From the IMG/VR virus record IMGVR_UViG_3300048579_000191, positions 1 through 44,638 of that record: DNA of 44,638 bases; one strand, written 5' to 3'. Shown here piece after piece: positions 1 to 37,437 of the stretch. The notes beneath the pieces are model-generated. The model did not search any database. It was not told the origin of the DNA and saw nothing but the letters and a program-made list of their open reading frames with translations. Numbering within the stretch: position 1 is the first letter of the stretch; every line of letters begins with the position of its first letter. The DNA comes from a virus (lineage: Duplodnaviria > Caudoviricetes). The position numbers were made by a program, and so were the translations under genes.

Positions 1-504
1 ACCGGCGCCCGGCTGGGCGAGGTGCGGCAGTCCCGTTTCGAACAGTTCAACCTCGAACACATGAGCTGGTCGAAGCCGCCCACCATGACGAAACAGCGCC
101 GCACCCACCGCGTGCCGATCTCTGACGAAACCGCCGCCATCGTGCGCCAGCGGCTGCTGCTCGTGCCGAATGGATCGCCGTGGCTCTTTCCCGGCGATAC
201 GCCCGGCCAACCGTTGCAGGAGGTCCGCCGTTTCTGGGCACAGGTCCAGAAGCAGTGCGGGCTGCAGGACGTCCGGATACACGACCTTCGCCACACCTTT
301 GCGTCCTTGCTGGTCAGTGGCGGGGCCTCGCTGGAAATGATCGGTAAGCTCCTCGGCCACAGTCAGATGCAGACCACCCTGCGATATGCCCATCTGATGG
401 ACTCGCCGCTGCGCGCCGGAGTGGACGCGGTGGCCAGCGCCTTCCGGCCGAAGCCCCGGCTGGTCCACGACGCCGACGATCAGGGCGGCCGGAAGTCTGC
501 CTGA
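1..504 (+). CDS. Tyrosine recombinase/integrase, C-terminal part (5' end outside the window)
   Basis: Frame 1 reads TGARLGEVR from base 1, then HDLRHTFAS, LLGHSQ and TLRYAH, giving the R...HxxR...H...Y catalytic set. Confidence 0.95.
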   Translation, partial: TGARLGEVRQSRFEQFNLEHMSWSKPPTMTKQRRTHRVPISDETAAIVRQRLLLVPNGSPWLFPGDTPGQPLQEVRRFWAQVQKQCGLQDVRIHDLRHTFASLLVSGGASLEMIGKLLGHSQMQTTLRYAHLMDSPLRAGVDAVASAFRPKPRLVHDADDQGGRKSA

Positions 505-529
505 CCCGGGCCAGCGCGGACCCGGATCA

Positions 530-1129
530 TCACGCCTCCTCCCGCCGCAGCGCCCTCCATATCGGCGTGATCCGGCGGCGGATCGAACGGCTATCTGGCA
601 TCTTCTTGCCGTCCGACCGATCCGCGAACCAGTCCTGCATCTCGGCAACCAGCTCGGCTTGGGTGGCAGGCAGCCCGTGGTCATGGATCCGCACGATCAG
701 GGCAATGTTCATGCCCTCCCAATCGTAGGGCGTGGCAGCACCGGGCCCGCTCGGCACACGACGCACCATGTCGTTCTCTTCCTCGAAGCCATGCACTTCA
801 TCGGCCATGATCATCATGTCCGCAACCGTTACCGTGACCCCGCCGACAGGATCGGTGATGATCTGCCACTGGCTCTTCTCGCCCGTCATGATCCGGCGCA
901 CCACGCCTTCGGTCGGACCGGTTCCGCAGCGCCGGAACAGCGGCATGAGGTCCATCGGCGAGATGGCCACGCGACCGGCGACAATTTCCCCGCCGCAATG
1001 CACCAGGCCAATGCCGGTCATGATGTGAAATTTGCCCGCCGCGGCCCATCCCGCGACATCGGCGATGTTGCATCCCCAACGGGCCGTGACTTCCTGAAGG
1101 GTGTAGTAAACGCGTTGCGGCAAAGCCAT
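530..1129 (-). CDS. Hypothetical protein with a probable N-terminal excisionase/AlpA-like HTH
   Basis: 199-aa ORF with RBS-like GAGGA upstream. N-terminus YYTLQEVTARWGCNIADVAGW resembles a winged HTH. It is convergent with the integrase. Confidence 0.65.
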   Translation of the reverse strand: MALPQRVYYTLQEVTARWGCNIADVAGWAAAGKFHIMTGIGLVHCGGEIVAGRVAISPMDLMPLFRRCGTGPTEGVVRRIMTGEKSQWQIITDPVGGVTVTVADMMIMADEVHGFEEENDMVRRVPSGPGAATPYDWEGMNIALIVRIHDHGLPATQAELVAEMQDWFADRSDGKKMPDSRSIRRRITPIWRALRREEA

Positions 1130-1482
1130 GACAAATCATCCTCACATGAACCGAGGACGGGCCGAACTCATACCGCCTGCAGCCCGTGCCGGGGGCGGCA
1201 CGGGTTAAGTGATCGGGCGCAACGACACGAGAGGCGCCAAGGCACCTTCGGTCAGAGCGACTGGTGTTCCGATAGACCTGTTATGCTTTTGGTTGAGGGC
1301 TGCTCTCCTCAAGGATGCACCCTGACGCGGGCTTCGATTCGGAGCAAGGGGGTGGCCAGCACGATGCTGTGGATATCGTTTGAAGCTTCGGCGGTCGTCC
1401 GCTTCGCACGCACTAACAGCACTACATATAGTGAGAGATCGGTTTTGTAACATAGCTGGTTCGCTCGTGGCGAACTCGGGGC

Positions 1483-1511
1483 TTGAAATGGCGAACCAGG
1501 TGCTCTATCTA
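1483..1511 (+). promoter_or_regulatory. Putative sigma70 promoter of the retron operon
   Basis: TTGAAA (1483-1488), 17-bp spacer, TATCTA (1506-1511), directly upstream of a hairpin-rich region. Confidence 0.55.
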
Positions 1512-1517
1512 GCGATC

Positions 1518-1931
1518 AATGCTCAGGTGAGAGATAGCTGCCATAGGCTGATCGGTTCGCCGATCGAGGAGGCTCCGGCCTCTACCCACTTCGGGGCGTG
1601 GCGACCGCATCCGCGCGATGCGATCCGCGACGACGACCCGTCGACTTAAGTCCGCAGCTCGCGTTGCGGCACGGGGATACCTAGGAGATAGCCTCTGCCC
1701 TGATTGCCTCTTGGGAAGGCGGCACACTCGTCGGGATGGTCCCGGCGAGGAAGCCCAGGAGGTTGCGACATGGGTAATGAACCTGTGAAGCCCCTGAGCA
1801 CCGGGCAGTGGATCCGTCGCTGGATTCGGCGTGTTCTTCGGAAGCGTCGGACCTTGATGGTCGCGTTCTGGATGGTGAAAGCCATCGTGTATCTGGCGCG
1901 ACTCTTCTTCTGAGACGGCTCCTAGGTGTTC
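1518..1931 (+). ncRNA. Retron msr/msd-type structured RNA that also contains a small ORF
   Basis: Inverted repeat GGATACCTAGGAG (1675-1687) / CTCCTAGGTGTTC (1919-1931), 13 bp with 2 G-U pairs. The 5' arm is followed by ATAGC (candidate branching G1691). There are many short hairpins, and it lies just upstream of HTH + retron RT. The 5' boundary is inferred from the promoter. Confidence 0.7.
1770..1913 (+). CDS. 47-aa small protein (basic amphipathic segment + TM helix), candidate retron toxin/effector
   Basis: AGGAGG at 1757-1762, 7 nt before ATG 1770. Sequence MGNEPVKPLSTGQWIRRWIRRVLRKRRTLMVAFWMVKAIVYLARLFF. Confidence 0.7.
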   Translation: MGNEPVKPLSTGQWIRRWIRRVLRKRRTLMVAFWMVKAIVYLARLFF

Positions 1932-1953
1932 AACTGCTGAGGATGGGAGAAAA

Positions 1954-2262
1954 ATGCTGAATGAAGCTCTTCGCCTGGTTCGGGTCTACCACGACCTGTC
2001 GCAGGCAGACGTGGCCGAACGCGTCGGGCTTTCAAAATCCTATGTTTCGGAGATCGAGAGTGGCGAAAAGAACGTCTCTCTTGCGGTGCTGGAGAAGTAT
2101 TCCACTGCCTTCGATATTCCGATGTCATCGCTCATGCTGTTTGCAGAGCGCGTGGAGGGTGCTGGAAAGGCCGATGCCATCCGGGCCTACGTGGCTGACA
2201 AGGCGCTGAAAATGCTGGATTGGGCCGCGACAATCTCCGAGTATCGTGGGGCGGGCAGGTGA
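1954..2262 (+). CDS. XRE/Cro-CI family HTH protein, retron-associated
   Basis: LSQADVAERVGLSKSYVSEIESGEK is a typical HTH_3 motif. GGGAG RBS. Its stop overlaps the RT GTG start (GTGA). Confidence 0.92.
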   Translation: MLNEALRLVRVYHDLSQADVAERVGLSKSYVSEIESGEKNVSLAVLEKYSTAFDIPMSSLMLFAERVEGAGKADAIRAYVADKALKMLDWAATISEYRGAGR

Positions 2263-3170
2263 GCCACGACCGCAACCAGTCTATCCTGTACAAGGTAACA
2301 AGCCCGCATATGCTGGCGGATCGCCTGCTTATTTCCCGAGGGGAACTGGACGCGCTCCTTGCGGATGCCGACCCCTACAAGCGGTGGATCGACAAAAAGT
2401 CCGGTCGGGCAATCCAGGAACCTCGACCGAAGCTAGCAAAGGTACATCGCAGGATCGCAACCCTTCTGGCCAGGATCGACACGCCAGCCTACCTGCACTC
2501 GGCCAAGAAGGGGCGATCCTACATCTCCAATGCTGCAGCACATTCCGTCGACGACGGGTGCGTCAAGATCGACGTCCGGAGGTTCTATCCTTCAGCGAGG
2601 GCTCAGGCCGTCTATCACTTCTTCCTCGACCGGATGGCTTGCGACGGTGATGTTGCCGGAATGCTCGCGAAGCTTCTGACCGTGGACGGACATCTGCCAA
2701 CAGGCAGCAGCGCCAGCCCAATCGTTTCGTACTTCGCCTACGAGGACCTGTTTCATGAACTTGCGGTCTTGGCCGAAGCATCTGGCTGCAAGATGACCGT
2801 GTACGTCGATGACATTGTATTCACGGGGGCAGGGGCGACGCGGCGCCTCCTGTTTGAAGCCAGGAAGGCCATCGGCAAACGGCACCTTCATGGGCACAAG
2901 ACCAAGCTCTTTCGGCCCGGTCAGCCGCGGATCGTCACCGGAGTTGCTGTCACCAACAATGGCCTTCGGTTGCCGAACCGGCGCCAGGTCCACATTGCCG
3001 AGGACCAGAAGCTGTTCGATGACCTGCCACTTGGCCGCGAGAAGCTCATCGTCGCACGGCGGCTCACTGGACGCCTATTTGAAGCCAGCCAAATCGATGC
3101 AGGGTGGCGAGTGCGCGCTGAGGCCATGGCTGCCCTGCGCGATGATATTCAAAGAAAGATCGGTCGCTAG
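2259..3170 (+). CDS. Retron-type reverse transcriptase
   Basis: SYISNAAAH (retron NAxxH region X), KIDVRRFYPS, LPTGSSASP, YVDD catalytic motif, IVTGV (retron VTG region Y). Start placed at GTG 2259, coupled to the HTH stop. Confidence 0.95.
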   Translation: MSHDRNQSILYKVTSPHMLADRLLISRGELDALLADADPYKRWIDKKSGRAIQEPRPKLAKVHRRIATLLARIDTPAYLHSAKKGRSYISNAAAHSVDDGCVKIDVRRFYPSARAQAVYHFFLDRMACDGDVAGMLAKLLTVDGHLPTGSSASPIVSYFAYEDLFHELAVLAEASGCKMTVYVDDIVFTGAGATRRLLFEARKAIGKRHLHGHKTKLFRPGQPRIVTGVAVTNNGLRLPNRRQVHIAEDQKLFDDLPLGREKLIVARRLTGRLFEASQIDAGWRVRAEAMAALRDDIQRKIGR

Positions 3171-3192
3171 ACCGGCATAGTCAGGGCTGGTT

Positions 3193-4533
3193 ATGGCTGA
3201 ACGCAACGATATTTCCAGCCTTTTGGCCTTCATCGGCCGAGAAGGTGACTGGCGCGAACGGCTGCAGGAGATTGTCGCCGAACACCTTATGCCCGCGCTG
3301 GAGGAATTCGAGATCGACCAAGACGGATTGGCCGACCTGCTGGGTGAGCAGTGGTCAGGCGTCCTATGGGGCTGCGGGTTCGAGGATTTCCTTGGCCAGC
3401 ACTATGAGGACGGCAACATCGTCGATCTCTATCTGAAGCGGCGCGGCTGGAAGGAAACGGCCTTGAACCGGGCCTATTTCACCGCGCTGCGGGATGCGCC
3501 GGTCAGCCTGTACGAAGTCAGCGAGGTCCAGCCCGGTGCATCGATGGTGCTGCGCGATTTGCTGTCAGATGCGGCACCGGTCACAGTGCGCGAGAAATCC
3601 GCCACGCGCACGCTGAAACAATGGGATAGGATTGCCGTTCGGGTGGTGGCCGAGCGCGATCACCATATCATCTCGGGGGCGCTGTTGCCCTTCCGCACCG
3701 AGGCGGTGGATTTTCTTTTCGCCGGTCTACGCGATGCCCTGAAGCTGAAGAAACGAGATGCGCTTCGGCTTTCGCACGATCAGCTGATGGGCTGCGCGCC
3801 CATCTTCACCGCCGCCTGGCTGTTCATCGAGATTGACCGTGCCCTCAGCCCGGCACAGCCGCAGTTCATCAATTCGGACGGCGACGATGTGCTGTTCCAC
3901 GATCTGCGGTACCCGCTTGCCAGCGGCGTGACGCAGAAAGCAGTGGCGGAGCGTCTGGACCGGGTGAAGGGCTTCCTGCCCGACGGGCCGAAGTTCTGGA
4001 ACTGGCTAGCTGCGCGGAAGGGGCGCGGCGGCAAGGCAGGCGGCGGCATCATGCTGGACACGCAGATGGAGGGGGCCACTGTTCTGGGTTCAGTCGAACT
4101 GAAGGGCAGGACGCTGCTCGTGACTGTTAACTCGGCCGAGCGGGTGGCGAAGGTCCAGGCGTTGATCGACGCTGCCGCGGGAGACCTGTTGAAATCACCT
4201 TTGACCACGATCCGGACAGTGGATCAGATGCGGGCCGACCAACGGCGTGATGGGCCAAGCGAAGCGACCGACGAAATCCCGCCAGAGATCGCGCGCCAGC
4301 TCATGCGGGATCACCTGGACAAGCACTACCGTGAAACGCTGGATGCGCCGATCCCGGCGCTGGGCGGCAAGTCACCACGGCAGGCTGTCCGGACGGCTGC
4401 GGGGCGCGAGAAGGTGATCGAGTGGCTGAAGATGCTGGAAAACCGCAGCGCCGGGCATGGCGAGGGGCCGATTGCAGAGTACGATTTCGGCTGGATGTGG
4501 GTCGAGCTTGGGCTGCTGGAACATCGCAAATGA
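3193..4533 (+). CDS. Conserved hypothetical protein with a C-terminal Xre/MbcA/ParS-like (DUF2384-type) domain
   Basis: 446 aa. C-terminal LDAPIPALGGKSPRQAVRTAAGREKVIEWLKMLE matches the MbcA/ParS C-terminal pattern. Starts 22 bp after the RT stop. Confidence 0.7.
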   Translation: MAERNDISSLLAFIGREGDWRERLQEIVAEHLMPALEEFEIDQDGLADLLGEQWSGVLWGCGFEDFLGQHYEDGNIVDLYLKRRGWKETALNRAYFTALRDAPVSLYEVSEVQPGASMVLRDLLSDAAPVTVREKSATRTLKQWDRIAVRVVAERDHHIISGALLPFRTEAVDFLFAGLRDALKLKKRDALRLSHDQLMGCAPIFTAAWLFIEIDRALSPAQPQFINSDGDDVLFHDLRYPLASGVTQKAVAERLDRVKGFLPDGPKFWNWLAARKGRGGKAGGGIMLDTQMEGATVLGSVELKGRTLLVTVNSAERVAKVQALIDAAAGDLLKSPLTTIRTVDQMRADQRRDGPSEATDEIPPEIARQLMRDHLDKHYRETLDAPIPALGGKSPRQAVRTAAGREKVIEWLKMLENRSAGHGEGPIAEYDFGWMWVELGLLEHRK

Positions 4534-4583
4534 AGGCCGACAAGACGGTCTGCGATGATGATCTGCGGGGGAGGGCGCGTGGG

Positions 4584-4604
4584 CTACATCAACACCACAT
4601 CAAC
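4584..4604. repeat. Arm-type integrase-binding repeat, copy 1
   Basis: CTACATCAACACCACATCAAC, a tandem of ACATCAAC units; 20/21 identical to 4856-4876. Confidence 0.65.
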
Positions 4605-4744
4605 CTGCGACTGCGGGCTTCGTGCCGGTCTTGCGTGTGAATACGTGCGAACGCTGATGACTGTGAGGACGAAAACTACGCCAGAACAAAGGCTTGCCCC
4701 GTAAGGCGCTGATTTCGACGATTATTCCGTTTTGCCCTTCCATG

Positions 4745-4791
4745 GGCTCATAACCTGAAGGTCGTAGGTTCAAATCCTACTCCCGCAACCA
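4745..4791 (+). pseudogene. 3' half of tRNA-fMet (CAT), att core duplication
   Basis: GGCTCATAACCTGAAGGTCGTAGGTTCAAATCCTACTCCCGCAACCA has the anticodon loop, T-arm and CCA. The 5' half (acceptor and D arms) is absent upstream. Confidence 0.88.
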
Positions 4792-4817
4792 AAAAATCTC
4801 GTCTTATCAAAGACTTC

Positions 4818-4855: not shown

Positions 4856-4876
4856 CTACATCAACGCCACATCAAC
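4856..4876. repeat. Arm-type integrase-binding repeat, copy 2
   Basis: CTACATCAACGCCACATCAAC, direct repeat of 4584-4604. Confidence 0.65.
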
Positions 4877-5011
4877 ACCGCAACAGAAAAACTGCACCTG
4901 CATGCAGTGGCGGGCATCCGCAGGCGCTGGAGGACAGAGCGAAGAAGATTGATCCTTCATGGAGCCAGTCAAGGCCCCATGCTCCATTAAGCTAAGCCTG
5001 ACCGGGGCGTC

Positions 5012-5767
5012 TCACATCCGCGGCGAGTCAGCTACGCTAAGAACACCAATTGAGCAGTCGTCTTCTGTCCTCGGCGAAAAGATTGACCGCAGATTCTCAT
5101 TCAGAATTGATGCCATTTTCTTGGCTGGGTTGGTCTCCGCCCAGGTAATGAGTGTTCCGACAGCGGATGCGATTTCCTGGCTGCTTTTCTTTACAAGGCT
5201 TCCGGATGCGCCATCGCTGCTGAGTAGGAACGTGCAAGGGCCATCGGTTTCGATGCGCCGCAGCTTCAAACTGGTTTCGGCACTAGTGCTTGTCACGAAA
5301 ACCGTTTGATTGATGAATTCTCCATTTTCGGGGTGAGATGCGACCGAAATTGTCCCTGAAGCCTTCATGAAAATGATTCCATCCCCCAGATGCCCGACCA
5401 GGGTCTTGCCGTTCTTGTGGGCAGCAAAAAGAAGCGTGCAAGCGTAAGAGTCCACGCCGTCGCGGGCGGAAAAACGCTTGCGCCGCAGACTGTCCAAGAT
5501 GCTGTTAATCAGGAAATGTTCAACCGTCGTACTTTCGATTGGCGACCTGCCAAGGTACAACGCATCGAAGTGGCGAACCAAAATCTCTGAAATCAGTTGC
5601 ACGCATGTACGTGCTCCGGTCCCAGAGTTCAGCTTTGAACCAGCGCCGTCCGCCAACACGATACATGCCGTGTCCCCCACCTGTCTGCCACCTACTGCGT
5701 CCTGACAGGCACCGCGAACTTGAGGCTTGCTCCGGCCGGGCACAGCAGCGAATGAAATCCTAAACAC
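5012..5767 (-). CDS. PP2C-family Ser/Thr phosphatase (TerY-P triad)
   Basis: CQDA, VLADGAGS, CTLL, HLGDG, LLSSDG and EDDCS motifs. GTG start abuts the vWA stop. Confidence 0.92.
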   Translation of the reverse strand: MFRISFAAVPGRSKPQVRGACQDAVGGRQVGDTACIVLADGAGSKLNSGTGARTCVQLISEILVRHFDALYLGRSPIESTTVEHFLINSILDSLRRKRFSARDGVDSYACTLLFAAHKNGKTLVGHLGDGIIFMKASGTISVASHPENGEFINQTVFVTSTSAETSLKLRRIETDGPCTFLLSSDGASGSLVKKSSQEIASAVGTLITWAETNPAKKMASILNENLRSIFSPRTEDDCSIGVLSVADSPRM

Positions 5768-6442
5768 TTAGACCGACGCCCAGCTGCTCATCGCGCTTGT
5801 ATCGAGGCTAACCTTGTCTCCAGGGGTTGACTGGGAAACTCGCGAAACTGACGCGCTCAGCCAAACGAAGAATTCCTGGAAGCTCAACCCCTTCAACTTC
5901 ATGGCGGCGCGCCCACCTGACAATGAGGCGAGGGTGGACATATCTGCCCCGTTTCCTATGCCGATGGCGAAGACCGCAAGTTTCTTGCCGTTCACTTGAT
6001 CATTGATGAGGCCCTTTGCCTTGGCGATATCATCGGTCGGTGATCCGTCAGTCATGAGGACTATCCATGGCTGGAAGTAGTCCACGCCCGCATTCTTGTA
6101 TTCGGCTTTTCGTGCCTCCAGAACTCGCAGTGCCTGTTCGATGGCTTCACCCATAGGAGTGGAACCCGTGGCCTTCAGAGACGGGATCTGTTGCCGTTGG
6201 ATTGATGCAAAATCCAATGCGAGATCAACGGTACCGCCGAATGTTACGATCGCCACTTCCGCCGAATATTGTGCGACTTCATCCTCCAGAACCGCTGCGA
6301 AGAATGTCTCGACACCTGACTGCAGTTCCTTGATCGGCTCCCCAGCCATCGATCCGCTGACGTCGAGGACAAGGCAGACAGGAAGCCTCGCAGTAGGGTT
6401 TTCGACAAGTTCTTCCTGACGAAGGATGAAGTCGTTCGGCAT
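5768..6442 (-). CDS. terY: TerY-like vWA domain protein
   Basis: MIDAS motif LDVSGSMAG, TPMGEA, YFQPWIVLMTDG and the TerY-type end FQEFFVWLSASVSRVSQSTPG. Confidence 0.9.
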   Translation of the reverse strand: MPNDFILRQEELVENPTARLPVCLVLDVSGSMAGEPIKELQSGVETFFAAVLEDEVAQYSAEVAIVTFGGTVDLALDFASIQRQQIPSLKATGSTPMGEAIEQALRVLEARKAEYKNAGVDYFQPWIVLMTDGSPTDDIAKAKGLINDQVNGKKLAVFAIGIGNGADMSTLASLSGGRAAMKLKGLSFQEFFVWLSASVSRVSQSTPGDKVSLDTSAMSSWASV

Positions 6443-6454
6443 TTTGAATGATCC

Positions 6455-8491
6455 TTATTTTGCCACTTTGGATAACAGCCACAGCAGAAATAGTATGACC
6501 GGGATGCTCAGCCATTTAAGCCAGACTACAAGCGCTCCCACTACTCCAAGTAGTACGACTGCGCCGACCAGTCCTGCAGCCTTGCTACTGGGTGCCTGCG
6601 CTGTTCCTGGAGTGGGATTTGGCTGCTTGCTCGTCCGAGAGGGACCACCGGATGTCGGGTTGGTCTGTCTCGATGTCCTGCTGGAAGCATTCGATTTCGG
6701 CCACGCCCAGCCGCCATTCTGTGTCGATGAAGCCACGGTAGGCTTGGCTGCTAATCTACCTTGCTCCCGCGCCGCTGTTTGTGCACTAAACGCCAATCGC
6801 TTCAGTTCGTTTGTACGAGCGCATTGTGGACAAACAAGACGTCTTCCAGCGGATTGTTTTTGTTCCAACTCTTGCTTGTGGATTTTGAAAGCTTTTCCGC
6901 AGCCAGTCTCAGAGCAGACTGCGTCTACCGCGTCTCCGGCCGCAATCTTCAGGCCGGTCGGGAATATCTCGGTCGTGGTGTAGCCAACCTCAAGCAGCCT
7001 TCGATACTCGGTCAGCAGGGGGAGCCAAAAAGAAATTGGATGACGTTTCCCTTCTTTGAACGTCTGGTGAAATGCTTCCTTCACCTTGAAAGGCAGATGA
7101 CTCCAGATAAAACGCCAAGGGCCGGACGCAACATTCTTGCTTCTATGCTCTTCCCCGAATGGGTATGGAAACTCACCTTGCATGATATTCTGTGCTTGAG
7201 ACTCTCCACCCTGCTGTGAGTAAGGAGGCTTCCCAGGAAGCAGGATCATGAATAGCATAGTTGCTACTGAAAATAGTTCAGCTTCCTTGGTTTTGAGCTT
7301 GCTGTACTCTCCCTGAGCCAAGACTTCTGGCGCCGAGAAGTTCACAGTTCCGACCGGACATGGAAAGCCTTCGATCTGGTAGCTATCAACATCAACGAAG
7401 TAGACATCCGAACCGTCGCCAGTTACTAGGCAATTCAGCGGGTTGATATCACCAACCAAGACGTTGATTGAGTGAAGAAATTCGATCTTTCTTAAAAATG
7501 ATATGCATATGTTAACAAGGTTCTTTCTGTCCCAGTTGGGAAACTTCTTTTCAAGAAGTGGCTTGGTAAACACCGACTTTTGTAGCGGCTGACCTAGAGC
7601 CGCAGGCATCGTATAGCCGATGAACTCACCTGCCGCATTTGACAACAAATCCTTGGGCCAGCATATTCCGTCAAAAATGATATCTCGAGACGTCATGAGT
7701 TCCAATTTTGCGAGGCGCCGTTTTGTGATCTTTTCGGGAAAGTAGATTTTCGCGACTTGCGTGCTGTCTTTGATTCTGAAAACTTCTCCTTCACCCCCTT
7801 TACCGACCGATTCCCCGAGCGTAATCATCTTCCCATTCGATCGCAAAATTGCTATTTCGCCACTGGCCGAAATGCGGCTTGTGGGAATTATCTCATCGGA
7901 TATTGTCGAGACTGACGCAGCCAGTTGAAATGGCCTAACCTTGGGCATCGAAAGTTCGACCCTGCGTGACCCCTGAGCATCGTCTTGTTGTTCCTTTGGG
8001 CGCTTGGGGATGTTTGGCGTCCAAATCACTGCTCGGATGCCCTCCAGCTCGGCCGCTACCTTGTTGGGGCCATCTCGGGTTACCAAAATGAAGTCGTAGT
8101 CCTTCGCAACCTCTCGAATCTTGGAGTCGTTGTTGCTAACCGTCCCAAAGGTCGTGCGCGAAATAAGAAACAAGAACGCACCGTTCAGGTTGTACCTGAA
8201 AAATTGATCGCCGTCTTTTGGGGTGGTCCCATCGGGGAAGCATGCGACGGGCTCCGGGCTTACATTTTTCAGCCACTGAAAGATTCTCTTGATGTTGTCT
8301 TTCTCGGGTTGACGCTCTTGCTTCTTCTTTTGATAGTCAAGCTCATCAAGAATTGTCTTTGTTATGACAGGAAAACCAATTGCGTTTGCGCGTGAGATCA
8401 CGTCCGCATCCAACATAAGAACGCAAGTATCTAAGATGGCGCATTCTTTGGCGGGTTTGTTCTTGGTCACTTCCGCGCTGGGTCGCTGCAA
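6455..8491 (-). CDS. PIN domain - Ser/Thr kinase - Zn ribbon - TM fusion protein (TerY-P kinase variant)
   Basis: PIN: ILDTCVL, LDELD, NNDSKI, LVTRD. Kinase: GKGGEGEVF, VAKIY, GDINPLN, VDVDS. Zn ribbon: CSETGCGKAF...VCPQC. Ser/Thr/Pro linker and hydrophobic C-terminus. Start uncertain (TTG 8491 or GTG 8470). Confidence 0.85.
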   Translation of the reverse strand: MQRPSAEVTKNKPAKECAILDTCVLMLDADVISRANAIGFPVITKTILDELDYQKKKQERQPEKDNIKRIFQWLKNVSPEPVACFPDGTTPKDGDQFFRYNLNGAFLFLISRTTFGTVSNNDSKIREVAKDYDFILVTRDGPNKVAAELEGIRAVIWTPNIPKRPKEQQDDAQGSRRVELSMPKVRPFQLAASVSTISDEIIPTSRISASGEIAILRSNGKMITLGESVGKGGEGEVFRIKDSTQVAKIYFPEKITKRRLAKLELMTSRDIIFDGICWPKDLLSNAAGEFIGYTMPAALGQPLQKSVFTKPLLEKKFPNWDRKNLVNICISFLRKIEFLHSINVLVGDINPLNCLVTGDGSDVYFVDVDSYQIEGFPCPVGTVNFSAPEVLAQGEYSKLKTKEAELFSVATMLFMILLPGKPPYSQQGGESQAQNIMQGEFPYPFGEEHRSKNVASGPWRFIWSHLPFKVKEAFHQTFKEGKRHPISFWLPLLTEYRRLLEVGYTTTEIFPTGLKIAAGDAVDAVCSETGCGKAFKIHKQELEQKQSAGRRLVCPQCARTNELKRLAFSAQTAAREQGRLAAKPTVASSTQNGGWAWPKSNASSRTSRQTNPTSGGPSRTSKQPNPTPGTAQAPSSKAAGLVGAVVLLGVVGALVVWLKWLSIPVILFLLWLLSKVAK

Positions 8492-8770
8492 AACTCAAAA
8501 CTCCCAGAAGACTGCCCAAACATGATGCTACCGAAAATGCCACCCTTCACAAGGTGGAATGTGCGGTCGGACGTCTGAGTTGCTGGTTGATTCGTCCTTT
8601 GCGGCCGGGTGGTTGACAGATTTCGACGCTTTTCAAGTTTGAGTGTGAGCTTTGTCCAAGCACGCACTTATGAGTGCTGCGGTTCGCGCCTTCAGTCCGC
8701 ATTTGGGTGGCTGAACGCTTCTACGCCGAAGGCGCGATGCCGGAGGATGTAGGTCTGAAATGCAGCCCAG

Positions 8771-8962
8771 CTATCGGTTTCGCTTGTCCGCCACCGACCA
8801 CACGACCGACCCGATGGTGAGCAGCGCGCCGATGACCGGTTCGATATCGGAAGCCTGGACATACCCTTTGGCGACCAGTGCGGTGCCCGCGACGGTCAGA
8901 ATTTGGCGGATGAGGGCGAGGATTGCAGGTTTCAGCATGGTGTTCTCCAGTTCAGATTTCAT
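8771..8962 (-). CDS. Putative holin (two TM helices)
   Basis: Small hydrophobic protein with a basic C-terminus (DKRNR), directly after the endolysin. May start at ATG 8938. Confidence 0.75.
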   Translation of the reverse strand: MKSELENTMLKPAILALIRQILTVAGTALVAKGYVQASDIEPVIGALLTIGSVVWSVADKRNR

Positions 8963-9605
8963 TGGTGGTTGCGAGGAATTCGCCCGGCTTCATGGTCGGC
9001 AGGCGTTGGGGGCGGGGCGGATAGGTTGCGGGCCAGCGCGCGCCCAGAAGGCGTGACTTGGCGATCCGTGCGATGGTGACGGCATCGGATTGGTTGCCGC
9101 CCAGCACGTAGAAATGCGTGTCATCCTGGCCGACCGCGAAGCCGACGTGGCCGCCAGAACCGCGTTCGAAAATCAGCACCGCACCCGAGACGGGTTTGGT
9201 CTCCTGCCCGAGCAGCAGCCAGTTGCGCGCCCAATAGGGATTGGTGCCCAGCGCACCTAGCAGCGGCTCGTCGGGCAGGGCCATGCGGATGCAGGTTTCC
9301 ACGAAGTCGCCGCACCAGGGGTTTTTGCTGGGGTCGCCCAAGGAGCGGCCATCACGCTTCAGCCAGTCCATCAACCAGGACCGGTCGCGCGCTTCGTTGC
9401 GGCCCAGCGCGGTTTTCGCCTCGGTGATCCACGGTAGCGGGTCGGGCGGGGCCAAGGCGGCCGACCGTCCATTTGCGGACAGCAATTGCTTCAGCGCCCG
9501 TGCGGTGCGGACACCCCATTTGCCGTCGATGGCACCGGGGCTGTGGCCAAGTTTGTCCAACCCGCTCTGGATCAAGCGGATGGCGTCGGTCTGGTCGGTG
9601 GGCAT
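8952..9605 (-). CDS. Endolysin: peptidoglycan-binding domain + TIGR02594/CHAP-like peptidase
   Basis: PGAIDGKWGVRT PG-binding motif, PWCGDFV, GGHVGF, VLGGNQSDAV. Confidence 0.88.
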   Translation of the reverse strand: MPTDQTDAIRLIQSGLDKLGHSPGAIDGKWGVRTARALKQLLSANGRSAALAPPDPLPWITEAKTALGRNEARDRSWLMDWLKRDGRSLGDPSKNPWCGDFVETCIRMALPDEPLLGALGTNPYWARNWLLLGQETKPVSGAVLIFERGSGGHVGFAVGQDDTHFYVLGGNQSDAVTIARIAKSRLLGARWPATYPPRPQRLPTMKPGEFLATTNEI

Positions 9606-9637
9606 GGAAACGCTCCTTTTGCCCGGCTTTGGGCAAC

Positions 9638-9661
9638 AAAAAACCCGCCTCGGGGGCGGGT
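9638..9661 (-). terminator. Intrinsic terminator upstream of the endolysin
   Basis: Minus strand ACCCGCCCCCGAGGCGGGT followed by TTTTTG. Confidence 0.65.
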
Positions 9662-9692
9662 GGGGTGGGTCGATGTGGTGGTATGGTGATCG

Positions 9693-10001
9693 TCAGTCGG
9701 TGCGGCCGCGCTGGAAGGCTTCAAACATCACATCCCGCATGGCGCGAATGTCGGTTTCGATCCGTTCCAGCCGGTCGGCGTCAGCTTTGCGGTCATCGGC
9801 GCGCTGTTTGTCGGTGCGCTCCCGCTCGAGGTGCAGTTCCCGGTCGAGGCGTTCCAGCATCGCCTCGTTGGTAAAGGCTTTGCGGGTGACGGTGGCTGCA
9901 ATGGCCAGCGAGCCGCCGACAAGCGCGGTGATGGCAGCGGTCAGGCCGTTTTCGCGGAAGGCCTGGCCGACCTCCTGCAGGATGGTGGTGCGTTCGGTCA
10001 T
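9693..10001 (-). CDS. Phage membrane/coiled-coil protein of the lysis region
   Basis: One TM segment (GLTAAITALVGGSLAIAATV), then a charged coiled coil; GAAGGGA RBS. Confidence 0.75.
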   Translation of the reverse strand: MTERTTILQEVGQAFRENGLTAAITALVGGSLAIAATVTRKAFTNEAMLERLDRELHLERERTDKQRADDRKADADRLERIETDIRAMRDVMFEAFQRGRTD

Positions 10002-10011
10002 GATGGTCCCT

Positions 10012-11970
10012 TCAGTAATCGGTTTCGAGATAGAGGCCCGCGCAGTCGTATGCGACGGCGGCGGCAGTCGCGCCGGTGTTCAGGTACAGGCGCGGCGAGA
10101 GGAATTGCGTGTTGGCGGGCAGGTCGACGGTGATTTCCTGTTCAAAGACCGCGCCTGTGACTTCGTTCACTGCCCGGACCCAGACGGAGCTACCGTTCGG
10201 CGGGGCCGCGATGAACAGCGTCAGCACGCCGCCCAGCGCGATGGCGAAGGGCGCACCCATGTCGGTCAGGGTCGGCGCGCCGGTGCCGTCATTGGTGACC
10301 ATCTGCCAGTTGGCGTGGGTGCCGCGCTGGAAACCGATGCCGACCGCGTTGATCACTGCAGCCAGAGTCAGGTTGACGGCCAGCGCGGCGATGGAGCCGT
10401 AGAGACCGAAGAACCCCATGCCGGTGGCCTGCAGGGTCACTAGCGAGATCCGCGTGACATAGGTCCAGCCGCCGAGGCCAGCCGCATTTCCACGCCAGCA
10501 CGCCCACCCAGCCGAACGCTGTTCTGCCACCGAATCCACCACGGCCGCCGAGGTCAGACGCCAGCGCCGCATGGAGGCCGCGAGGTTGGTAGCGGCCAGC
10601 GTCGGATGCGACACGGTGCCGACGTTGGTGATGGGCAGACCCTCGGTGGTGATTGTGGTGGTGATCGACGGTGACCAGTTGGCAATCCGGTTCACCCCGA
10701 AATGCGGCTGCAGCGGGAAGTCCCGGCCCGAGGGCCGCATGACATCGATCCACGGCGCCCCGGCACGGTTGCGCGCATAGACCGAGGTCTTGCCCGAGGG
10801 TGGTGGGGTGGGGGCGGCGTTCAGCCCCGGCAGCACGGTCGGCTGGGGCAGTTCCACTTGGCCATTGGTGCGATCCACCACGATGGCATCGAAGAAGCTG
10901 GAGCCGTTGGGACTGACCTTGAAGCTGAAGTTGTCGTTGCCCAATAGCCCGATCAGGGCGCGCGCCGAAAACCCGGTCTTGAAGGCGAAGGCAGCATCGT
11001 TCCCCGCTGCCGCCTTGTTCACCGTGGCCTCGATCCCGGCGCCTGCGTTGTTCAAGAGCACCGCGGGCGTGTTCATCGACAGACGGTTGAAGCTGTCGGC
11101 GGTCGCGCCGCCGAGGCCGAAAAGCTGCGCCGTCAGGTTCGCCTGCGGCATGCCGACCTGTGTGACGGCATTGGCGAAGGTGACCGTGGGCGTGTTCACG
11201 ACCGTCGTGCCGCCGGCCCCAGCCGTCGCCGAGCCGATGTTGACGACGGTGGTCGATCCGGACGCGCCGCCGGTGCCAAGGTTCAGAGTCTTGGTCACGC
11301 CGGTCGGATTGACCCCCGTGCCCATCCCATAGGTCGCGGCCGTGATGGCGGTGCCGATCGAGGCCGCCGCCGCGGAAACCGTAACAGTCCCCGAGGCGGT
11401 CAGCGTGCCACTGATGGACACCGCGCCCGATGCGGTCAGCGAACCCGAGAAGGTCTTGTTGCCGCTGAAGGTCTGAGTGCCCGCAAGGATCGCCAGTTCT
11501 GAAGAGGTGTTCGGCAGGGCGAACGTCCGGGTCGTGCCGGTCGTGATCCCCGACAGCGAGAACAGCGCCTGCTTGGTCGGGTCGGCATCGTTCACCAGGC
11601 TGAAGACGGCATCCGACACATCGACCGGTTCGCCGACCAGATCCCAGGCCGATCCATTCCAGACGACAAAGGCCTGTTCCGCCGCGATCCATGCCAGCCA
11701 ACCCGGACGCGGCACCAACCGCATCCAGACTCCGTCGACCCAGAAGGCGATGTTCAGATCCCAGCCAGCCCACAGGCCTGTCGCGCCCGATGCCACAATA
11801 TGCCGGTCGCCATCGGTCGGGCTGACGGGTGGGGTGGTGCGGGTTCGGTCGAGGACCGACAGCTGGACCATGGCATCCAGCAGGCGCAGCGCGTCGTTGT
11901 GGGTGACATGCTTTTGCGCCTGCGATGCCAGGATGTAGGGCAGCAGGAGATGGGTGGTGATATCGGACAT
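10012..11970 (-). CDS. DUF2793-containing tail fibre protein
   Basis: N-terminal LPYILASQAQKHVTHNDALRLLDAMVQLSV...GDRHIVASGATGLWAGWD, Thr/Gly-rich shaft, located after the baseplate gene. Confidence 0.85.
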   Translation of the reverse strand: MSDITTHLLLPYILASQAQKHVTHNDALRLLDAMVQLSVLDRTRTTPPVSPTDGDRHIVASGATGLWAGWDLNIAFWVDGVWMRLVPRPGWLAWIAAEQAFVVWNGSAWDLVGEPVDVSDAVFSLVNDADPTKQALFSLSGITTGTTRTFALPNTSSELAILAGTQTFSGNKTFSGSLTASGAVSISGTLTASGTVTVSAAAASIGTAITAATYGMGTGVNPTGVTKTLNLGTGGASGSTTVVNIGSATAGAGGTTVVNTPTVTFANAVTQVGMPQANLTAQLFGLGGATADSFNRLSMNTPAVLLNNAGAGIEATVNKAAAGNDAAFAFKTGFSARALIGLLGNDNFSFKVSPNGSSFFDAIVVDRTNGQVELPQPTVLPGLNAAPTPPPSGKTSVYARNRAGAPWIDVMRPSGRDFPLQPHFGVNRIANWSPSITTTITTEGLPITNVGTVSHPTLAATNLAASMRRWRLTSAAVVDSVAEQRSAGWACWRGNAAGLGGWTYVTRISLVTLQATGMGFFGLYGSIAALAVNLTLAAVINAVGIGFQRGTHANWQMVTNDGTGAPTLTDMGAPFAIALGGVLTLFIAAPPNGSSVWVRAVNEVTGAVFEQEITVDLPANTQFLSPRLYLNTGATAAAVAYDCAGLYLETDY

Positions 11971-21071: not shown

Positions 21072-21971
21072 TCATTGGAGGCAGCATTTCTTGAACTTCT
21101 TGCCACTGCCACAAGGGCAGGGGTCGTTTCGGCCGGTCTTGCCGGTGATCACGCTGTTGAACGGATCGCTGCTGCGGGGCATCAGCGACGACAGGACGTT
21201 CAGGCGGCCTTCAGCCTTCTTCGCCAGGTATTCCGGAGTGAAGCAGTACCATGGCTCGAGTTCGGCGATGGTGTCAGTGATCAGCGTGTTGCTGGATATT
21301 TCAGTGAACCAGTCGGGCCGACCGGCATCCAGCGTTGCCTGAAGCCGCTCGGTGAAATCCTCGAGACGGCTGTGATCCGGGGTGATCAGACCACTGTCGA
21401 ACACGGCTCGCACAGCAGTTTCCAAGTTTGAAAGGCCAAGGGCCGCAATACATTCGGCCCAAGACCACCAGACTTCCTCGCCTGTATTGGTGCCGGTGAG
21501 GTCGAAGAAGTCGACGAGGAACTGCGAAACGCGGGGCCGCAGACCGGGATGTTCCAAGGCAACGATGGCCAGCGTGTCAAACATCTCGCCACGCAGGAAG
21601 CTGTCAGCGGTATCATCCAGCAGAATGTCGAACAGCGGTTGCAGATCGCCGTCAAACACCCCTGCCATGACACGCGCCGAGGCTTCGGTGATCGAATCTC
21701 CCAACAGTGCATCCAGAAATTCCGGATCGCGCCGGAGCAGCTTGGCCAGTGGGCGAAAGGCCCGGGTCTCGCGCCATTCAGCCAAGAGGAAGAAGATGAA
21801 AACGAAGGCATCCATGCGCTCGAGATCATCTATCTTTGCCGTCTGCAGTTTGCCGATGTAGTCCAGAAACACCGGCACCATGGCTTCGCGCGATTGTCCT
21901 GCCGCCACCAATGCGTCGCGCGGCAGCGGGCCAACGCCCTCCAATGCAGCCATGATTTCGGCGGGTGTCAT
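21072..21971 (-). CDS. DUF1186-like protein with C-terminal SEC-C motif (moron)
   Basis: Ends GRNDPCPCGSGKKFKKCC. Start set at MTPAEIMAAL with an AGAAAGG RBS; the longer track ORF overlaps the tail tube gene. Confidence 0.85.
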   Translation of the reverse strand: MTPAEIMAALEGVGPLPRDALVAAGQSREAMVPVFLDYIGKLQTAKIDDLERMDAFVFIFFLLAEWRETRAFRPLAKLLRRDPEFLDALLGDSITEASARVMAGVFDGDLQPLFDILLDDTADSFLRGEMFDTLAIVALEHPGLRPRVSQFLVDFFDLTGTNTGEEVWWSWAECIAALGLSNLETAVRAVFDSGLITPDHSRLEDFTERLQATLDAGRPDWFTEISSNTLITDTIAELEPWYCFTPEYLAKKAEGRLNVLSSLMPRSSDPFNSVITGKTGRNDPCPCGSGKKFKKCCLQ

Positions 21972-22059
21972 GTGCGGAACCTTTCTCGGGGGAATCGTTG
22001 AAACGGATACCGCCATTTCGCGCCCGCCTCCACTGTGCGGATCAGCCTCCATACCCATT

Positions 22060-22998
22060 TCAATAGGCCGCCAAGGTGTTGATGAGGACGGCGGTGCACA
22101 TGCGGGCGGGGCTGGCGGCCTTTGCGGCCATCCAGTCGAACGTCGCTTGCACGCCCTGCGGCCCAGCGATCTCGATGCGCGGGCGGGGCAGATAGACGGC
22201 ATGGGCGGTGAAGGTGAAGCTGGCGTTGGCCCCGAGACTGTAGTTGAACTCCAGCTCGCAGGGCGTGCCGTCGATGGCTTGGGTGATCAGCGTGGTGTCG
22301 GAAAACCTCACCTCGATCCGGCCTGACAGAGCGGCCATCGCGGGATCGGCACCATCGATCCGGCCATCGCCGCGGATGGTTTCGATCCGGTCGAGGTTGT
22401 TGGAATAGGTGATCTCGGCCGAAACCACATTGCCCAAGGCCGAGCCGTTGCGCTTCACCGTGCCATTGAAATGGCCAAACCGCTGTAGGCCCAGCGCGGT
22501 GGGCGTGCCAGCGGCGGTCGCTGCGGCGATGGTTTCGCCTTGGGCGACAAGCCGTGCAGTGGCGGTCAGCAGACCTGAGCGCTGCATCTGCCAGGTCAGC
22601 TGATCGAGGACGCAACCAGAATACATCGCGAAACGTGGCACCTCGGGCATCGCGGTTTCAATAGCCATGCTGGGCAGGGTCCAGTTACCCGACTGAAAGG
22701 TGTGGGTCTTCGGCGTCGTGCCCGTGGTGGTGGGCTGGCCGAACGCGGCCTTTAGCCAGAACCCGAACGCCTCGACGTCGATGGGGATCACCACCTCGCC
22801 GTCTGCGGTGACCGCGTCCTTGATCGGAGCCAGCTGATCGCGACCATAGCCCAGCAGTTCGGATTCCAGCAGCGGTTGTTCCGATCCCAGCGTGGTCCGG
22901 GCGAATGGCATCAATCGGAACCCACTCACCGGCGGGGTGCCGTAAACCGTCTCATACGCAAGCGCCATCTGCGCCCGCGCGCCTTGCGCACGTGCCAT
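22060..22998 (-). CDS. Major tail tube protein
   Basis: MARAQGARAQMALAYETVYGTPP, beta-rich 312 aa, downstream of the tail terminator; AAGGAG RBS. Confidence 0.88.
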   Translation of the reverse strand: MARAQGARAQMALAYETVYGTPPVSGFRLMPFARTTLGSEQPLLESELLGYGRDQLAPIKDAVTADGEVVIPIDVEAFGFWLKAAFGQPTTTGTTPKTHTFQSGNWTLPSMAIETAMPEVPRFAMYSGCVLDQLTWQMQRSGLLTATARLVAQGETIAAATAAGTPTALGLQRFGHFNGTVKRNGSALGNVVSAEITYSNNLDRIETIRGDGRIDGADPAMAALSGRIEVRFSDTTLITQAIDGTPCELEFNYSLGANASFTFTAHAVYLPRPRIEIAGPQGVQATFDWMAAKAASPARMCTAVLINTLAAY

Positions 22999-23589: not shown

Positions 23590-24699
23590 TTATTCTGCGG
23601 AGATCACTTCCCACATTGCCAGCATTTCTCGGATGACACGCTTGTCCCCGTCTGACACGACGTAATCATCATAGAATTGCTGCCCATTGAAGCGAATGAC
23701 GGCGCGATCCGCGTCAGCGATTTTGCGGGCAAGCGCCACGGCGGCGTCGCCTCGCATGCTGGCAAACTCCCAAATCTCGGTGTCATTGTCGCGAAACCAT
23801 TGACCAACCGGTACTCGGGTCGTTTCTCCGTCAATGTTGATCGAGGCGCTTTCGACGAACAGCCAGCCACTCCGTGATGTGTAGTTGAAGAACAGCTCCA
23901 TGGTCTTCTGACCCGAGCCAGATTCGATCAGATAGAGGGTCACGTAGTTTCGGATATCCTGAAAGCGCGGGGACGATGGGTGCCGCCCCCAAGAGGAACT
24001 GTCGAACTCGGCCGTCGTTCGCACCAGTCGCCCCTCGAGCGCACGGGCCGTTCTTTGCAGTTGCTCACGTTCCGCTTCGATAGCTTGTTCGTAACTTGCG
24101 GCCTTGCCGACGTAGGTCTGGTTTTCGCCGTTTACCCGCGCCAGGGCTTGATACGCGACAAAATTGCGTTCGGCTTGTGCGGCGGGAATGGGTCGAACGT
24201 ATGCATTGAGTGCTTCTTCAAGCGCATCACGTTCAGGACTTGGAGGTGGCGCAAAGGTCGTGTCCGCGGCGATCTCGCGCGCAATAGCTTCCACGTCTGC
24301 CCCATCTGCTTGGATCCGGGAAAGAAAATCTGCGAGCCGCGTATCGGCTGCAGGCGCATCTGCTTGTGGTGCCGCTGGCTCCTCAGACGGGGCCGGGGTC
24401 GGGCCGAAAGCATCGGATAGGCCAGCCGCCCTTTCACGAGCGGTGTCCAGACTCGCGCCTTCAATTGCTTCGGCAAAAGCAAGGCACAACTCGACCTCCC
24501 TCGACCAATCCGCGTTCTGCAAGGAACCCCATGCGATCATTGATGCCGCAGCGTCCATATAGGCTTCGGCATCCCGCGCAAGAAACGCATCGCGGCATTC
24601 TGAACGCGCTGTGTCGACCTCTTGCTGCGACGGATCAGCACCGGCAGGAAATGCGATAAGTGCCGTCGTCGTCAGGGTAAGGAGGAAATTGCGCATCAT
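23590..24699 (-). CDS. Secreted hypothetical protein (moron)
   Basis: Signal peptide MMRNFLLTLTTTALIAFPAGA, acidic 369 aa, inserted between neck and tail genes. Confidence 0.75.
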   Translation of the reverse strand: MMRNFLLTLTTTALIAFPAGADPSQQEVDTARSECRDAFLARDAEAYMDAAASMIAWGSLQNADWSREVELCLAFAEAIEGASLDTARERAAGLSDAFGPTPAPSEEPAAPQADAPAADTRLADFLSRIQADGADVEAIAREIAADTTFAPPPSPERDALEEALNAYVRPIPAAQAERNFVAYQALARVNGENQTYVGKAASYEQAIEAEREQLQRTARALEGRLVRTTAEFDSSSWGRHPSSPRFQDIRNYVTLYLIESGSGQKTMELFFNYTSRSGWLFVESASINIDGETTRVPVGQWFRDNDTEIWEFASMRGDAAVALARKIADADRAVIRFNGQQFYDDYVVSDGDKRVIREMLAMWEVISAE

Positions 24700-36937: not shown

Positions 36938-37437
36938 CGCGCGGGTTCGGCCAGCGGCGTGCAGATGATCAGCGTGGTTCGGCCGGGGAGATACCAGCTT
37001 GGGAAATCCTCGGGCCAGGTGACGCAAAGCCCGTAAAGCGCAGCCGTGGCCATGGTATCCTGACGCTTCGCAGCATCGAAGTTGCCGTAGAGATGGGCTG
37101 CCACCGCGGCGGCTTTCCTGTCCTTGCGGTAGAAATACCCGTGATCGACGAGCTCACGCGGCCAGGGATCGACGTGATATCCGCGCCCATTGAACAAGCC
37201 GCGCCGCGCCAGCACCGAGGGTGAAAAGTCCGATTTCGACAATCGCCAGCCATGACGCTCGCCGAACAGCATGGCGAGGCGCTGACGCGTGGCGCGCAAA
37301 TCCTGATAAATGGCGTCGCTCTGACGTTGGCCTTTCGCGTCGCAGAATTTCTGCTGATAGTCAGTCACCGCGCTGGCGAGAGCGGCAATTTCGTCAGGGC
37401 TTGTTGCAGCTTGCTGGAGGACGAAGGGTCTGTTCAT
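36934..37437 (-). CDS. Hypothetical protein between the two methylases
   Basis: 167 aa (MNRPFVLQQ...), ATGA-coupled at both ends. Confidence 0.7.
   Translation of the reverse strand: MNRPFVLQQAATSPDEIAALASAVTDYQQKFCDAKGQRQSDAIYQDLRATRQRLAMLFGERHGWRLSKSDFSPSVLARRGLFNGRGYHVDPWPRELVDHGYFYRKDRKAAAVAAHLYGNFDAAKRQDTMATAALYGLCVTWPEDFPSWYLPGRTTLIICTPLAEPAR

Follow-up and report, generated by a model that had tools for sequence, protein, structure and literature searches.

A type VI retron carried as cargo by a temperate phage-like element, with a candidate operator for its HTH protein

Type VI retrons are defined by a clade 3 reverse transcriptase (RT) accompanied by a Cro/C1 helix-turn-helix (HTH) protein of 91-110 aa, encoded 5' of the RT gene or overlapping it; in the text of Mestre et al. 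2020, transcriptional regulation was merely suggested as the role of the latter (PMC7736814). In Retron-Vpa2, of the 'Large' lineage, the preprint's main text describes the msr-msd and the gene of a small protein (SP) as one hybrid RNA with SP as the toxin, and HTH, RT and RNA as parts of one complex in which HTH co-purifies; msDNA builds up only on infection, derepressing SP translation, and none is visible on gels before triggering, with a 7-nt repeat between the msd loop and the riboregulator loop proposed as the trigger link (10.1101/2025.10.22.683967). In Retron-Sen3, of the cl2075 lineage, ssDNA and SP are by contrast constitutive, SP is made despite a ribosome-binding site (RBS) predicted to be sequestered, and HTH neutralises SP without ncRNA or RT, according to the main text of a second preprint (10.64898/2026.04.27.721009). 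The role given to HTH therefore differs between the two accounts, being that of an RT repressor in one (10.1101/2025.10.22.683967) and of a protein antitoxin in the other (10.64898/2026.04.27.721009), and DNA binding is not its sole role in type VI, because the Sen3 protein acts on SP with neither ncRNA nor RT. That the peptide is the toxin is thus already in print for the family. Type VI retrons also occur in the phages KS5, P2_2H1, ST147-VIM1phi7.1 and MuM16-1, which the text of their description presents as temperate phages with an HTH-RT cassette at a cargo locus (PMC8541194).

The retron genes and their phage setting

The stretch of DNA analysed here (the window) is a virus record of 44,638 nucleotides with lambda-like head genes and GTA-like tail genes. 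An earlier note, made from its letters alone, had read positions 1483-3170 as a complete alphaproteobacterial retron on an integrative island, to be refuted if no RT-dependent ssDNA were produced; the last is a misleading criterion, because Vpa2 msDNA is invisible on gels until triggered. The locus, which we extend to 1460-3170, almost certainly belongs to the type VI retrons and is, as a retron, an unexceptional example of that established type. Its DNA sites and genes are as follows.

1460-1474, plus strand: TTCGC-N5-GCGAA, strong site of a palindromic candidate operator for HTH; no other site in the window scores 10/10
1482-1510, plus strand: promoter predicted from sequence, -35 TTGAAA at 1483-1488 and -10 CTATCT at 1505-1510
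1491-1495, plus strand: GCGAA within the promoter spacer, a second half-site of the candidate operator, 21 nt downstream of the first
1770-1913, plus strand: SP gene, 47 aa, predicted toxic effector
1954-2262, plus strand: HTH gene, Cro/C1 (XRE), 102 aa; PADLOC HTH_VI 2e-34, 116 bits; Pfam HTH_3 9.9e-14
2259-3170, plus strand: RT gene of a type VI retron, 303 aa, intact; PADLOC RT_VI 1.8e-76

The type VI layout that the note had recognised is borne out by PADLOC, in which the RT scores 255 bits against the RT_VI model and 119 bits (4.7e-35) against the second-best retron model; it is on this score that the RT is placed in clade 3. Its GTG start overlaps the HTH stop by 4 nt (GTGA), in keeping with the translational coupling proposed, and the motifs NAAAH (2529-2543), YVDD (2802-2813) and VTG (2934-2942) are all present, the first and last of them already named in the note; NAxxH, YxDD and VTG are what we take to be the labels of retron RT motifs. 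Of 55 RTs from the collected loci, 52 have NAxxH and 53 have V/ITG, and all 11 matches of the RT profile in the PDB are retron RTs. At E<=1e-50 the profile found matches in 5 of 401 genomes of a family sample and 10 of 401 of a class sample. Among genomes, those of Tabrizicola, Defluviimonas and Paracoccus carry the closest counterparts, as expected of the alphaproteobacterial retron proposed. Beyond this locus, a TIR-domain gene stands directly 3' of a type VI RT on two plasmids from different branches of the tree (L114, 2390-3355; L116, 2453-3412), and a TIR-domain gene overlaps the match in H32.

The 47-aa open reading frame lies 5' of the HTH gene, behind the Shine-Dalgarno sequence AGGAGG (1757-1762), and encodes a protein with a basic amphipathic middle and a hydrophobic C-terminal helix. 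A longer form of 69 aa, started at TTG, was rejected because the Shine-Dalgarno sequence stands before the ATG at 1770. Ten homologues are near full length; against that of L005, 13 codon changes are synonymous and 5 non-synonymous. More widely, an SP-like frame was called in 60 of 62 non-redundant loci (3 of the calls being doubtful), at the same place, short, usually basic and with a hydrophobic C-terminal stretch. In L063 and L064 the SP stop is altered such that the frame runs 4 codons longer to a stop within IR2, the 3' arm of the stem described below. Searches with SP gave no Pfam, PADLOC, PHROG or NCBIfam match, and its ESM Atlas matches were all below 0.9. The note's suggestion that this unannotated peptide is the effector agrees with the Vpa2 and Sen3 experiments: that SP is the toxin is known for the family and, by analogy, would hold at this locus.

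The surroundings of the retron are those of the integrase and attachment end of a Rhodobacteraceae-type temperate phage-like element.

1-504, plus strand: C-terminal part of a tyrosine integrase (Pfam Phage_integrase 3.7e-20)
530-1129, minus strand: 199-aa phage protein (phrog_13283), left of the cargo slot
4745-4793, plus strand: att core, the 3' part of tRNA-Met(CAT), matching tRNA-Met genes in L070 and L073 and element ends elsewhere

Three genomes contain a block, 89-92% alike, that corresponds to bases 1-4794 and ends at this att core; a whole tRNA gene was found nowhere in the window. The record most probably represents a temperate phage in permuted form that spans attP, because in four retrieved stretches the left end of the window comes ~1.8 kb after its right end, and because head genes and retron share one contig (G001:C19). 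Alternatively, it may be a tandem pair of elements, as in G002, where two family elements stand in tandem behind tRNA-Met (C12, 173202-269027); the retron-bearing element of G002 has no match to the window's head genes. The integrative island of the note needs correction accordingly, and a stand-alone island was rejected, head genes and retron being together on G001:C19. A CATCAAC-rich motif flanks att on both sides (4587-4605 and 4860-4881), its left copy recurring near the element ends of relatives. The phages KS5, P2_2H1, ST147-VIM1phi7.1 and MuM16-1 share with this element the temperate habit and the cargo locus, but are P2-like or Mu-like, and the text consulted on them analyses neither an ncRNA nor an operator (PMC8541194).

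The retron occupies a swappable cargo slot between the 199-aa gene and a 446-aa gene (3193-4533, plus strand) that forms the slot's right edge in several relatives and has no Pfam, PADLOC, PHROG or NCBIfam match. Where the window has a retron, L072 has a stand-alone 922-aa helicase-like gene (8170-10938), L071 other genes (5508-9923), including a DEDDh nuclease fusion and a JukB-like gene, all of them possible defence genes; one contig has 388 other bases and no retron. The window carries other notable genes: a TerY-P-like triad of low G+C (5012-8491, minus strand; PIN-kinase 678 aa, vWA 224 aa, PP2C 251 aa) lies between att and holin, in another cargo slot at the opposite end of the phage; a type II restriction enzyme (39240-41229, minus strand; PADLOC 1.2e-130) adjoins a C5 methylase; two N6/N4 methylases lie at 35615-38693; and a DUF1186/SEC-C gene (21072-22202, minus strand) and a 369-aa gene (23590-24699, minus strand) are inserted among the tail genes.

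The leader RNA and its repeat

A consensus fold of seven related leaders, whose alignment cells are not independent events, gives the following elements, counts of paired cells being pooled over the alignment.

1517-1945, plus strand, ends approximate: hybrid RNA predicted from the consensus fold of 7 sequences, made up of msr-msd, riboregulator and the coding sequence of SP
1549-1583, plus strand: two msr-like hairpins, 49/49 and 42/42 cells paired
1590-1674, plus strand: candidate msd, a long variable stem with a small terminal hairpin (1650-1670), assigned by inference
1666-1672, plus strand: GCGGCAC, the earlier of two copies of a shifted repeat, in the 3' arm of the msd's terminal hairpin
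1675-1687, plus strand: IR1, 5' arm of a long-range stem around the SP gene, 91/91 cells paired
1707-1762, plus strand: riboregulator stem, 1707-1715 with 1754-1762, 59/63 cells paired
1719-1725, plus strand: GCGGCAC in the riboregulator, second copy of the shifted repeat
1919-1931, plus strand: IR2, 3' arm of the long-range stem, from the consensus fold

Double changes occur in 32 of the 118 pairs overall, and are spread over the msr-like hairpins (4/7 and 1/6 pairs, respectively), the 13-bp IR1-IR2 stem (2/13) and the inner hairpin of the riboregulator at 1727-1749 (6/9). In the consensus fold the riboregulator stem covers the SP Shine-Dalgarno sequence and a separate stem holds the SP start codon; six of the seven bases of the Shine-Dalgarno region have a predicted unpaired probability below 0.1. 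By prediction and covariation in these seven related leaders, the RNA thus has the features of type VI, namely a sequestered RBS and inverted repeats that enclose SP. The folding energy of the leader modestly beats chance (z -1.87, with 5 of 100 shuffles equally good), and an Rfam search of it gave no match. Across the wider collection the long-range helix is better than its own shuffles in 25 of 57 loci, and a crude and insensitive test of the IR1-IR2 duplex reaches p<=0.05 in 18 of 60. Rows left out of the comparisons among loci were L017 and L024 (no SP call), L019, L026 and L036 (doubtful SP), L066 (no hairpin), L113 (treated as a near-duplicate of L032), L111 (no upstream room) and L100 (no HTH match). 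From its position 5' of IR1, and by analogy with the 63+23 nt msDNA of Vpa2, the candidate msd would yield an RT-DNA of ~85 nt.

The RNA thus appears to fold like the hybrid RNA described for Vpa2, a modelled structure that is supported by comparison. The note had spoken of some 400 nt of structured leader; the structure holds up under comparison and the length does not, the non-coding leader being ~250 nt (~1517-1769), since the figure of 400+ nt is that of a hybrid RNA including the SP gene. Contigs from RNA libraries touch the locus as well, X2 spanning 1527-1943, a weak indication in that contigs show neither ends nor levels; others bridge ncRNA, SP and HTH. Together X2, X11, X12, X14 and X3 extend over parts of 1527-2461 and leave the palindrome uncovered, but this is no evidence for a transcript start, because their starts differ and X5, X8 and X18 run through.

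The proposed trigger of Vpa2 has a counterpart in much of the family. In 35 of 56 loci a word of at least 6 nt is common to the riboregulator region and to the loop of the last hairpin 5' of IR1, where 3.9 would be expected from crossing loops and targets between loci; this loop-only test replaced a first one with a high chance rate (51/57, with 27.3 by chance). The shared word differs by lineage, which lends independent support to the Vpa2 proposal. In the window and in L005 the repeat from loop to riboregulator is 4 nt only, short of the Vpa2 type. The three closest relatives from outside, L077, L082 and L083, carry GCGCAC in each of the two loops; within the window's clade both sites are altered, and the 7-mer in the riboregulator now equals the 3' arm of the hairpin. 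Alone, the shifted 7-mer is not significant, a repeat of at least 6 nt arising in half of the shuffles for the window locus. Loop and shifted 7-mer are identical in relatives whose RTs are 72-98% identical, and, as a lead only, the copy at 1666-1672 would fall at the 5' end of the predicted RT-DNA.

Set beside the main text of the Vpa2 preprint, the locus has the same gene order (ncRNA-SP-HTH-RT), a hybrid RNA of comparable length in which inverted repeats flank SP and stems contain RBS and start codon, a short SP with a hydrophobic C-terminal helix (55 aa there, 47 here) and an Arg at HTH position 7, comparable with Vpa2 R7 under numbering that is not aligned. It differs in its arm-to-loop 7-mer, where Vpa2 has a loop-to-loop repeat, in its alphaproteobacterial phage host and in YVDD rather than YADD (10.1101/2025.10.22.683967). 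With Retron-Sen3 it shares the SP-HTH-RT order, the IR1-IR2 stem around SP and YVDD, as far as the main text describes that system (10.64898/2026.04.27.721009). Control here might accordingly be of the Sen3 kind, with SP made constitutively and held by HTH as antitoxin, the palindrome and HTH then amounting to ordinary toxin-antitoxin autorepression; the Sen3 data themselves speak for this, as do the missing Vpa2-type loop repeat in the window's clade and the fact that a predicted sequestered RBS did not prevent SP synthesis in Sen3. We nevertheless consider it unlikely. The Sen3 SP is 79 aa long, its lineage having an N-terminal extension and 75-79 aa, with constitutive ssDNA and post-translational control (10.64898/2026.04.27.721009), whereas the 47-aa SP here is near that of Vpa2; moreover the RNA agrees with the three-arm description of Vpa2, and the strong palindromic site stands upstream of the -35 rather than over it. 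Translational control like that of Vpa2 is the more probable arrangement.

A palindrome at the operon promoter

The promoter placed at 1483 by the note stands on mixed evidence. CTTGAA-N17-CTATCT (1482-1510) fits what we take to be the alphaproteobacterial RpoD consensus, and two homologues (L085, L087) have, by eye, an exact CTTGAC-N17-CTATAT; a sigma-70 scan, however, left it uncalled and gave one other site instead, at chance level. Nor does the system begin at 1483, as the note had it, but further upstream, with the palindromic dyad at 1460-1474, 8 nt 5' of the -35.

A dyad matching TTCGC-N5-GCGAA at no fewer than 9 of its 10 positions lies 258-393 nt 5' of the SP start in 42 of 62 non-redundant loci, 34 of them perfect; the consensus of these sites is TTCGCT-N3-AGCGAA. 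In the first set it was found in 33 of 44 non-redundant loci, with 1.8 expected from shuffles, a set that is partly the one in which the motif was first noticed by eye and that includes one case sitting at -28, not at a promoter. Among loci fetched once the motif was fixed, it was present in 6 of 9; among later loci it was at the promoter in 6 of 10, including Scytonema, Staphylococcus and Acinetobacter; and of those picked by the RT_VI model that have the window lineage's HTH, 3 of 4 carry it. A spacer of 5 is found in 39 of 53 loci, as against 0-2 for spacers of 2-4 and 6-9. Of the 37 strong loci, 29 have their best TTG-led hexamer 5-9 nt 3' of the dyad, and 15 have a weaker second half-site at +20/+21, with at most 2 at any other offset. 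A scan of viral contigs by motif only led to two further type VI HTH-RT loci, ~480 nt downstream, its hits being mostly chance (2 true out of 120; 72 oriented with room). In a quick tree confined to RTs of the collected loci, the dyad is spread across the entire tree.

Several patterns tie the dyad to HTH. Variant dyads are altered on both arms (L041, L081, L092, L020), and three loci with a degenerate recognition helix, in which S-x-S-Y-x-S-E-I-E is lost, have no dyad (L096, L097, L239); L096 and L097 nest among dyad-bearing loci in the quick tree, and the three are probably one lineage, and so one event. Against such a tie, 20 of the 62 loci score below 9/10, some of them with an intact-looking helix (L036, L085). 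It is quite probable, from these patterns of sequence, that HTH binds the dyad at 1460-1474.

A host regulator, or some other role of the dyad, would leave the rest of a Vpa2-like retron as it is, with HTH confined to the RT-RNA complex, where the Vpa2 protein co-purifies. A host factor is conceivable because the exact dyad has 7-20 copies per genome in five host genomes, about twice the 3-10 copies seen with a 6-nt spacer, and one locus without an HTH match (L052) has a perfect dyad 298 nt 5' of its RT. We hold this unlikely: the same sequence and spacing recur in Pseudomonadota, Cyanobacteriota and Bacillota, and neither the 18 RT loci that have no HTH nor the three loci with a distant HTH and a longer SP show the dyad at the corresponding position. 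A role other than operator is further opposed by its position upstream of the -35, outside the predicted transcript.

Binding by HTH, the preferred reading, would make the dyad likely to be an autoregulatory operator of the retron operon, because the best solved relatives of HTH are the controller proteins of restriction-modification systems: in the PDB it matches C.BclI (6e-9) and C.AhdI (3.6e-6) by sequence, and by fold C.BclI is the top Foldseek match of a model with pLDDT 65. Matches to controller proteins are common for XRE domains. Controller proteins such as C.BclI, C.AhdI and C.Esp1396I are small XRE HTH proteins with a strong 5' and a weak 3' operator site before their own transcription unit, likened here to the dyad by description, the text consulted giving the sites without motif letters (PMC2632904). 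The pattern of a strong palindrome and a weaker downstream site at the protein's own promoter recurs at the locus; but HTH here belongs to a retron operon (SP-HTH-RT) rather than a nuclease operon, its gene lies ~490 nt 3' of the site, it has extra C-terminal helices, it has no linked restriction-modification genes and it is not filed as a C protein. Whether it would activate and then repress, rather than repress plainly, is about even.

The dyad is apparently unreported as a type VI promoter operator. The main texts of the Vpa2 and Sen3 preprints make no mention of an operator, palindrome or autoregulation, and a literature search, with subscription journals mostly outside its coverage, found no report of a type VI retron operator. 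The Vpa2 main text describes no promoter operator, its alignment being trimmed to the RNA ends (10.1101/2025.10.22.683967). About as far from the SP gene, Sen3 has a 5' stem-loop that is essential, with a loop of 3-14 nt and compensatory changes, where the dyad here has a fixed spacer (10.64898/2026.04.27.721009); compared by description, the variable loop argues that it is a different element. A scan with the Sen3 primer gave only four unrelated viral matches.

Proposed mechanism and its meaning

We propose, with a probability of roughly 0.58, that this is an intact type VI retron in a phage cargo slot, which likely defends its host through the release of a 47-aa toxin when phage infects and whose HTH likely also sets its own transcription at the palindrome. 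The functional steps rest on experiments with the family or on sequence patterns. From sequence and comparison, a single promoter would drive a structured RNA, in which RT template and SP gene lie together, and beyond it HTH and RT; the RNA is predicted to hide the SP ribosome-binding site, so that little toxin would be made at rest. As in Vpa2, HTH, RT and RNA would form a complex, and phage recombination proteins would let the ~85 nt RT-DNA accumulate, the 5' end of which may pair with the riboregulator and free SP translation, through a repeat that has shifted from loop to arm. A final and new step would be the binding of free HTH dimers to the strong dyad 5' of the -35 and, at higher levels, to the weak site over the promoter, giving activation followed by repression, like the controller proteins of restriction-modification, such that in a newly entered host antitoxin would build up before toxin RNA became abundant. 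That the cargo is instead decaying, its trigger repeat broken and its defence lost, as the absent loop repeat and a replaceable slot (one contig being without the retron) might suggest, is very unlikely given three intact open reading frames, mostly synonymous changes in SP and the constancy of loop and shifted 7-mer in relatives.

What goes beyond the published work on Vpa2 and Sen3 is, apparently, the conserved promoter dyad and the shifted repeat. A wider extrapolation, which we hold tentatively and at slightly less than even odds, is that the HTH of the broad-host lineage of type VI retrons is a controller-like transcription factor at TTCGCT-N3-AGCGAA, a delayed-activation switch for safe transfer that is tied to the share of HTH in the RT-RNA complex, and that in the window's clade the toxin is triggered by arm-mediated strand displacement, not by loop-loop pairing. 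Nature has, in the shifted repeat, provided a test of the pairing proposed between msDNA and riboregulator, and the conserved 15-bp site makes the disputed role of HTH directly testable; the dyad may alter how the phenotypes of HTH mutants are read, and offers a marker in the DNA of where type VI operons begin. If the proposal is true, the retron would share with restriction systems a timing device for moving between hosts.
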